Of a stretch of DNA of 64,000 nucleotides, positions 48,680-49,567 are shown piece after piece (position 1 is the first letter of the stretch; each line of letters opens with the position of its first letter). The notes below the pieces were generated by a model. The model had not been told where the DNA came from and did no database searches. It saw nothing but the letters and a program-made list of their open reading frames with translations. This DNA comes from Escherichia coli. GTDB taxonomy: Bacteria; Pseudomonadota; Gammaproteobacteria; Enterobacterales; Enterobacteriaceae. The position numbers and the translations under genes were made by a program. The stretch lies in NCBI RefSeq assembly GCF_003790525.1, contig NZ_CP033635.1, one strand, 5' to 3'.

Positions 48680-49567
48680 GTGGTACGGCGTTTAACTTCT
48701 CCGCGGCTCGAATTTGAAGCTGCGGCAATTTATGAATATCCCGAACATTTACGTTCATTCCTTAATGACTTACCCACCCGACCAGGGGTGTATCTGTTTC
48801 ATGGCGAAAGTGACACCATGCCGCTCTATATCGGCAAAAGCATTAACATCCGCAGTCGGGTGCTTTCTCATTTACGCACCCCTGATGAAGCCGCCATGCT
48901 ACGGCAATCCCGACGCATCAGCTGGATATGTACCGCCGGTGAAATCGGCGCTCTGCTCCTTGAAGCGCGATTAATCAAAGAACAACAGCCACTGTTTAAT
49001 AAACGCTTGCGGCGAAATCGCCAGCTCTGTGCCTTGCAATTAAATGAAAAGCGCGTCGATGTGGTGTATGCCAAAGAGGTGGATTTTTCACGAGCCCCCA
49101 ACCTGTTTGGCCTGTTTGCCAATAGGCGCGCAGCTTTGCAAGCATTGCAGACCATCGCTGATGAACAAAAACTTTGTTATGGTCTGTTGGGACTGGAGCC
49201 GTTAAGTCGCGGTCGTGCATGTTTTCGTTCAGCGCTAAAACGTTGCGCCGGAGCATGCTGCGGTAAAGAGAGCCATGACGATCATGCGCTACGTTTGCGC
49301 CAGTCTCTGGAGCGTTTGCGGGTGGTGTGTTGGCCTTGGCAAGGGGCGGTGGCGCTGAAAGAACAGCACCCGGAAATGACTCAATATCATATTATTCAAA
49401 ACTGGCTGTGGCTGGGGGCGGTTAATTCGCTGGAAGAAGCGACAATGTTAATTCGGACACCCGCCGGGTTTGATCACGACGGTTATAAAATTCTTTGTAA
49501 GCCGCTGCTTTCCGGTAACTATGAAATTACTGAACTTGATCCGGCGAATGACCAGCGAGCCAGTTGA
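48680..49567 (+). CDS. cho: UvrC-homolog excinuclease Cho
   Basis: 295-aa ORF with a GIY-YIG nuclease motif (..[26 protein letters not shown]..). Confidence 0.92.

Follow-up and report, generated by a model that had tools for sequence, protein, structure and literature searches.

Convergent gene overlaps and the cho/ves pair

Convergent overlapping pairs, in which two genuine genes, one on each strand, have 3' ends in common, have been catalogued in genome surveys (Lillo and Krakauer, 2007, PMC2174442; Palleja et al., 2008, PMC2478687). These overlaps are most often in the (123:132) phase, they arise when the loss or shift of a stop codon lengthens a gene at its 3' end, they are conserved only in close relatives, and any terminator must fall within the coding sequence (CDS) of the partner. 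A survey of 58 genomes found the (123:132) phase in 49% of convergent overlaps of at least 5 nt, more than any other phase, and counted 58 convergent CDS overlaps in E. coli (PMC2174442). A terminator is predicted inside the partner CDS in 21 of these 58; the predictions are rho-independent, for one gene in 19 pairs and for both genes in two (PMC2174442). The cho/ves overlap of E. coli is like this class in all of these respects and shows no essential difference from it. Both reading frames are conserved protein-coding genes with orthologues in 80 species loci, and their stop codons lie within the shared nucleotides. Its 41 bp make it rather long among typical members but keep it below the 60-bp class scrutinised in those surveys. 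Compared with the catalogued pairs, cho/ves offers a measurable asymmetry of constraint, with a constrained ves frame and an apparently free Cho tail. Reference annotations already carry the overlap, and the class to which it belongs is well described.

The mscL-arfA pair is an E. coli precedent with a 3' overlap (PMC10070815). Like cho and ves, the two genes lie tail to tail in Enterobacterales, fall into overlapping, proximal, and distal spacing classes, and are both stress related. Complementary transcripts, RNase III processing, and reciprocal effects on expression were established by experiment for mscL-arfA (PMC10070815), whereas cho/ves is known here from sequence and tables of 3' ends. 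Also unlike mscL-arfA, cho is often deleted, and the published K-12 3'-end maps list nothing at the cho/ves overlap. Collision-type bidirectional terminators are another related system (PMC4161252; Ju et al., 2019, via Wang, 2022, bioRxiv 10.1101/2022.10.23.513370). They resemble cho/ves in having convergent genes, no efficient canonical terminator, and a hairpin near the junction. The bidirectional terminators described sit between genes and serve both transcripts, whereas the sole hairpin at cho/ves lies upstream of the ves stop, where no 3' ends have been mapped, and could serve cho only. Overlapping 3' ends are not mapped at cho/ves, unlike in the cases described by Ju et al. (2019) and Conway (2014).

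The original prediction of a 41-bp tail-to-tail overlap of cho and ves in the window (the whole 64-kb stretch of E. coli DNA analyzed) was confirmed by open reading frames, raw sequence, curated protein models, and RefSeq annotation (Table 1). Cho matches NCBIfam equivalog NF007833 with 578 bits over residues 1-287 (the model has 289 positions), and Ves matches equivalog NF008488 with 427 bits over 1-191 of its 191 residues. Ves also has a Pfam HutD match at residues 8-175 and matches HutD structures. The Pfam scan of Cho gave no match at E<=0.01; its identity comes instead from the NCBIfam and PDB searches, and in the latter its N-terminal GIY-YIG domain is homologous to UvrC structures. A mechanical list of open reading frames also offered a TTG start extending ves to 50165; this start was rejected because homology gives it no support.

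Table 1. Features of the cho/ves junction and of the rest of the window (window positions).
Feature	Position	Strand	Description
Match to sRNA STnc540 (Rfam)	20673-20831	-	Above gathering score
Match to Phe leader (Rfam)	24527-24651	-	Above gathering score; pheM region, also in RefSeq
REP-like palindrome	48490-48526		Adjoins the ES036 match; weak naRNA4 match
Match to sRNA ES036 (CssrF) (Rfam)	48530-48572	+	44.3 bits, above gathering score; nadE-cho intergenic region
LexA-box-like palindrome	48647-48666	+	14 nt upstream of the cho GTG start; read from sequence
cho CDS	48680-49567	+	Excinuclease Cho, 295 aa; GTG start; TGA stop 49565-49567
Rho-dependent 3' end inside cho	48704		cho +24; K-12 1823539
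Rho termination region inside cho	48949		cho ~+270; K-12 1823784; Rho score 3.9
ves CDS	49527-50102	-	HutD-family protein Ves, 191 aa; ATG start at 50102; TAA stop 49529-49527
Antiparallel coding overlap	49527-49567	both	41 bp; coordinates from ORFs, raw sequence, and RefSeq
Ves C-terminal tail	49527-49556	-	A183-Q191 and stop; beyond core end L182
Cho variable C-terminal tail	49538-49567	+	D287-S295 and stop; beyond last conserved residue L286
Hairpin downstream of the cho stop	49586-49614	+	12-bp stem, 5-nt loop; starts 19 nt past the cho stop, in ves codons 163-173
Second strong hairpin	50011-50054	+	Antisense to the 5' part of ves; -22.6 kcal/mol in a 41-nt window
spy intrinsic terminator	50225-50296	-	Long hairpin upstream of ves; -44.7 kcal/mol, z = -8.2

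Over 1.7 kb around the overlap, the window matches E. coli SMS-3-5 (NC_010498.1) with 100% identity, and RefSeq annotates exactly these cho and ves coordinates there. Of 5426 complete E. coli genomes, 5425 contain this 1.7-kb stretch. A 71-nt probe across the overlap is present in 5387 of the 5426 genomes and identical in 3892. The K-12 sequence at the junction is identical to the window, and the RefSeq annotation of K-12 MG1655 has a 41-bp overlap too (cho 1823515-1824402, ves 1824362-1824937), as does that of E. fergusonii, which was fetched separately. Literature searches on cho, ves, ydjQ, and ydjR and on Ves/HutD returned nothing on this locus.

Anatomy of the overlap and constraint on its two frames

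When 17 orthologues of each protein are aligned, the conserved core of Ves extends as far as L182 (motif SEIxWL) and that of Cho as far as L286 (motif EIxEL). The codons of these residues (49535-49537 for Cho L286 and 49557-49559 for Ves L182) place the two cores 19 bp apart. Beyond the cores, Cho tails have 0-9 residues of variable sequence, and Ves is 182, 185, 191, or 200 aa long depending on the clade. The NCBIfam model of Cho (NF007833) stops at about residue 287. Because the spacer holds no intergenic DNA, the frames run on past their cores; each reads the spacer for nine codons, and roughly 21 codons would be expected before a random stop. The cho TGA faces Ves I179/N180, and the ves TAA faces Cho I282/T283. 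As read from the coordinates, the first codon positions of cho and ves face each other, cho position 2 faces ves position 3, and cho position 3 faces ves position 2, which is the (123:132) phase. AlphaFold2 models of Ves and Cho, made from the 17-sequence alignments with regard to disorder of the tails, had mean pLDDT values of 44 and 54, too low for use.

Convergent genes with little or no DNA between them are common. The window has seven convergent CDS junctions, which comprise the cho/ves overlap and six pairs spaced by 3, 3, 40, 46, 50, and 52 bp; with two of the seven at 3 bp, near-zero spacing is nothing exceptional. The cho/ves overlap is real, yet statistically unremarkable. The two closest of the other pairs are ydjO/tcyP and selO/hemP (record positions 1446558/1446562 and 1468936/1468940), which likewise have no space for an intergenic terminator. 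A strain-specific 3' extension had been named in the original prediction as a finding that would speak against the overlap. This is borne out in part, in that both 3' ends are clade-specific extensions past the conserved cores. The arrangement is shared with K-12 and E. fergusonii.

Variable sites in the overlap bear on which frame selection follows. Two independent sets of orthologues were compared, 14 sequences with the 41-bp overlap and 17 with a 23-bp overlap. In the 41-bp class, 5/11, 3/12, and 7/12 overlap sites are variable at ves codon positions 1, 2, and 3, no different from the ves-only sequence. Counted by cho codon position in the same class, 7/12 second positions vary in the overlap against 11/50 in cho-only sequence (p=0.03) and 3/12 third positions against 43/50 (p=8e-5), Fisher p-values that are only indicative given the small numbers of sites (35 and 17 nt in the two classes) and the phylogenetic relatedness of the sequences. 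The 23-bp class has the same pattern, with 5/6 variable second positions (p=0.006) and 1/6 variable third positions (p=2e-4) in cho, equally indicative. The two classes agree, and they suggest that constraint in the overlap is carried by the ves frame while the Cho tail appears to drift as if unconstrained. This fits with the persistence of the Ves tail where cho is missing and with the end of the curated Cho model near residue 287.

The ves-cho junction across Enterobacteriaceae

The astE-spy-ves/cho-nadE synteny is widely conserved, and the convergent order of ves and cho is widespread in Enterobacteriaceae. A scan with one genome per species gave 80 ves loci, and spacing could be read at the 58 junctions where both genes are intact. 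Across these 58, spacing changes stepwise by clade, the extremes being a gap of 48 bp and an overlap of 73 bp. The 41-bp overlap occurs at 13 loci, only in Escherichia and Citrobacter, and at every cho-bearing locus of these genera. Overlaps of 32 bp are found in Leclercia and Silvania (5 loci), and overlaps of 23 bp in Enterobacter and Lelliottia (17 loci). Superficieibacter, Phytobacter, and Kosakonia have overlaps of 15, 7, and 4 bp (4, 4, and 6 loci, respectively), and Atlantibacter and Franconibacter have gaps of 2 or 3 bp (4 loci). Gaps of 28, 46, or 48 bp are found at 4 loci (Pseudescherichia vulneris, Enterobacter sp. ENT03, and two others), and the 73-bp overlap at a single locus. As to conservation in orthologs, which had been put forward as a check on the overlap, the 41 bp are kept in Escherichia and Citrobacter, and other clades differ, between the 48-bp gap and the 73-bp overlap.

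The gapped junctions have a different kind of spacer. In the four species with 28-48 bp between ves and cho, which have the same genes in the same orientation as E. coli, the gap is filled by a GC-rich palindrome with a 14-bp stem, and the gap segments fold at -44 to -54 kcal/mol. These palindromes look like insertions of a REP-like or terminator-like element. Their presence between the same two genes makes the overlapping state optional.

Loss of cho is also frequent. The gene was deleted or has decayed repeatedly and independently in at least 12 lineages, with the tail and length of Ves kept. It is absent from E. albertii, six Citrobacter species, a Salmonella assembly, two Trabulsiella loci, and Enterobacter BIGb0383, and it is a pseudogene at two loci (L022 and L040). 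The cho-less loci are clean deletions with a hairpin-bearing spacer of ~20-75 bp between ves and nadE. In E. albertii, cho homology ceases ~3 nt past the ves stop, so that the deletion spared the ves reading frame exactly. The sequence of the Ves tail persists in genomes that lack cho. Functional antisense regulation would be expected to go with retention of both the partnership and the overlap; here cho has been lost often, and the length of the overlap varies.

Some E. coli genomes differ in the Ves frame itself. A W181stop variant of 180 aa, with 116 member sequences, would shrink the overlap to 8 bp, and frameshift variants of 217 aa reach far into cho antisense (variant set P0002, P0008, and P0045). 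Some of these truncated or frameshifted variants may be assembly errors.

Termination at the junction and competing explanations

The palindrome CACTGGATAGATAACCAGCA at 48647-48666 is presumably the SOS box of cho/ydjQ. The cho gene is reportedly under SOS (LexA) regulation, and ves is said to be induced at low temperature. One set of 3'-end data was checked, the curated K-12 tables of Term-seq and BCM results from Adams et al. (2021; PMC7815308 supplements). They cover three growth conditions, non-SOS and at 37 C, under which expression of both genes is weak. For these conditions the tables place no 3' end within the overlap or antisense to ves (PMC7815308), which does not show that convergent transcription is absent under SOS induction or in the cold. 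Inside cho they list a Rho-dependent 3' end at +24 and a Rho termination region at ~+270 (Table 1; PMC7815308). Such Rho-dependent ends early in the gene indicate that uninduced cho transcripts are probably mostly abortive.

Canonical terminators were sought on both strands. A consensus scan found no promoter-like or terminator-like site near the junction and no terminator-like site on the relevant strands at 49000-49900. Past the ves stop, RNA structure is no stronger than in shuffled controls (z = -0.55). A stable GC-rich stem shortly past the stop codon, one of the marks of an intrinsic terminator, was found for cho only. RNA past both stops is C-rich relative to G, as expected of RNA antisense to coding sequence, and is compatible with Rho loading. 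An Rfam search of the overlap found no family, whether at the gathering threshold or at a permissive one. Farther along, between spy and ves, the hairpin of the spy terminator is flanked by an A-run on one side and a T-run on the other; its U-tract belongs to the - strand and the T-run to the + strand, where there is a terminator-like site too. The hairpin corresponds to a strong Rho-independent K-12 3' end at 1825060(-), 123 nt upstream of ves (PMC7815308), and it looks able to halt + strand transcripts that read antisense through ves.

The original prediction stated that no terminator can lie between the two stops, and this is borne out by the zero intergenic DNA. Its further claim that the geometry implies transcriptional interference or antisense coupling does not follow, as terminators can sit inside the partner CDS and transcript overlap is general. 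Overlapping 3' transcripts, 286 nt long on average, are produced at 276 of 370 convergent E. coli operons (~75%; Conway, 2014, PMC4161252). At that frequency transcript overlap is the rule, independent of any overlap between coding sequences.

The hairpin downstream of the cho stop (Table 1) folds at -21.2 kcal/mol (z = -4.2) on the + strand and at -12.6 kcal/mol on the - strand; the + strand version is stronger because three of the stem pairs are G-U. The stem is not followed by a U-tract, the next letters being GUGUGCCUGCC. Comparable hairpins number 17 on the + strand and 23 on the - strand of the window, about 1 per 3 kb of strand, and the chance of a hairpin this strong at that spot is roughly 2%. 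The stem is kept in E. coli, in the cryptic clades, with a pairing-preserving change from C to U in L006, and in E. whittamii. It is weaker in E. albertii, which has no cho, and absent from E. fergusonii (-5.9 kcal/mol) and almost all Citrobacter (-3 to -8 kcal/mol), both of which share the 41-bp overlap and an intact cho. One arm is set by the invariant Ves motif T164-L165-R166, and complementarity to it needs only the lineage-specific P170-Q171 codons. Four Enterobacter loci have an unrelated strong hairpin at ves codons 163-173, in which the T-L-R codons pair with the lineage's own x-K/x-G codons (-22.7 kcal/mol in E. hormaechei and -22.1 kcal/mol in E. wuhouensis on the cho-sense strand). 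The common position of the Enterobacter and E. coli hairpins could be convergence or chance, and the E. coli hairpin is probably incidental. A conserved general terminator of cho was rejected as its role, since E. fergusonii and Citrobacter do without it. Because it lies inside ves, the hairpin cannot terminate ves without truncating Ves.

Several explanations of the overlap and its surroundings were weighed. An artefact of annotation or sequencing, with a wrong stop, a frameshift, or an extension in one genome, is almost certainly not the answer. Long convergent overlaps in databases are often artefacts of 3'-end extension (PMC2478687), and the 217-aa frameshift and 180-aa nonsense forms of Ves do occur in some assemblies, but curated models and orthologue alignments validate both frames end to end, the arrangement is identical in K-12 and E. 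fergusonii and was probed in nearly every complete E. coli genome, and 41 bp falls short of the 60-bp range where artefacts dominate (PMC2478687). It is unlikely, though not to that degree, that the hairpin is a functional 3' element of cho mRNA, either terminating transcription non-canonically or causing a pause, or else blocking exonucleases and so fixing the mature 3' end after Rho termination farther downstream. The strength of the stem, greater on the cho-sense strand and only 19 nt past the cho stop, its rarity on the + strand of the window, its maintenance by pairing-preserving changes in the cryptic clades and E. whittamii together with its weakening in cho-less E. albertii, and the unrelated hairpin at the same place in some Enterobacter all favor a function. 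These points have to be set against the missing U-tract, the loss of the stem in E. fergusonii and nearly all Citrobacter despite their 41-bp overlap and intact cho, and the dependence of one arm on Ves residues. In addition, the hairpin was found post hoc, and K-12, with identical sequence, has no Term-seq 3' end reported there.

Regulatory coupling was given a lower probability, and we consider it very unlikely. Under this explanation, SOS-induced transcription of cho and stress- or cold-induced transcription of ves would control each other by RNA polymerase collision or by antisense RNA and RNase III, in the style of mscL-arfA. A full-length transcript of either gene would include antisense of the other, given zero intergenic DNA and no canonical terminator; mscL-arfA is a precedent in the same species (PMC10070815), convergent pairs have been shown to terminate by collision (bioRxiv 10.1101/2022.10.23.513370), and the convergent synteny is widespread in the family. 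However, the spacing is not conserved (-48 to +73), in four species a palindromic hairpin separates the genes, and cho was lost many times with ves unchanged; on these grounds the coupling claimed in the original prediction is not upheld. The three K-12 conditions likewise gave neither 3' ends nor antisense ends at ves, Rho truncates cho transcripts near +24 and +270, no Rfam family lies in the overlap, and CDS overlap adds nothing specific where three-quarters of convergent operons have overlapping 3' transcripts anyway. Less probable again is a combination of these ideas, in which the E. coli hairpin and overlap together form a 3'-end or pause element of cho and SOS-induced cho transcripts collide or pair with those of ves. 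If that were true, collision or pairing would be a DNA-damage input to Ves expression or a cold- or stress-dependent brake on Cho.

The overlap is probably a passive by-product of tight convergent packing, in which two tails of low importance, specific to their lineages, moved by drift of their stop codons, and transcription ends within the partner gene, probably via Rho. With cores 19 bp apart and no DNA between them, each frame would cross the spacer and end at its first in-frame stop, opposite the edge of the other core. The length of the overlap would then drift between clades through stop-codon changes and small indels. In the absence of a canonical terminator on either strand, both transcripts would have to finish inside the partner gene, most likely through Rho-dependent termination of untranslated, C-rich antisense RNA, as base composition and general knowledge of Rho suggest. 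There is no sign of a regulatory device at the junction, and dedicated coupling of cho and ves is not needed to explain the arrangement.

As an individual feature, the overlap is of little importance, since it is in the reference annotations already and is one of 58 in E. coli K-12. On the comparative evidence, Cho function is unlikely to depend on its last 9 residues. Deletions or tags at the 3' end of cho or ves alter the other gene, and knock-outs of either should spare 49527-49567. The junction is a worked example of dispensable tails encoded on opposite strands of one spacer, with one frame constrained and the length of the overlap changing stepwise by clade.
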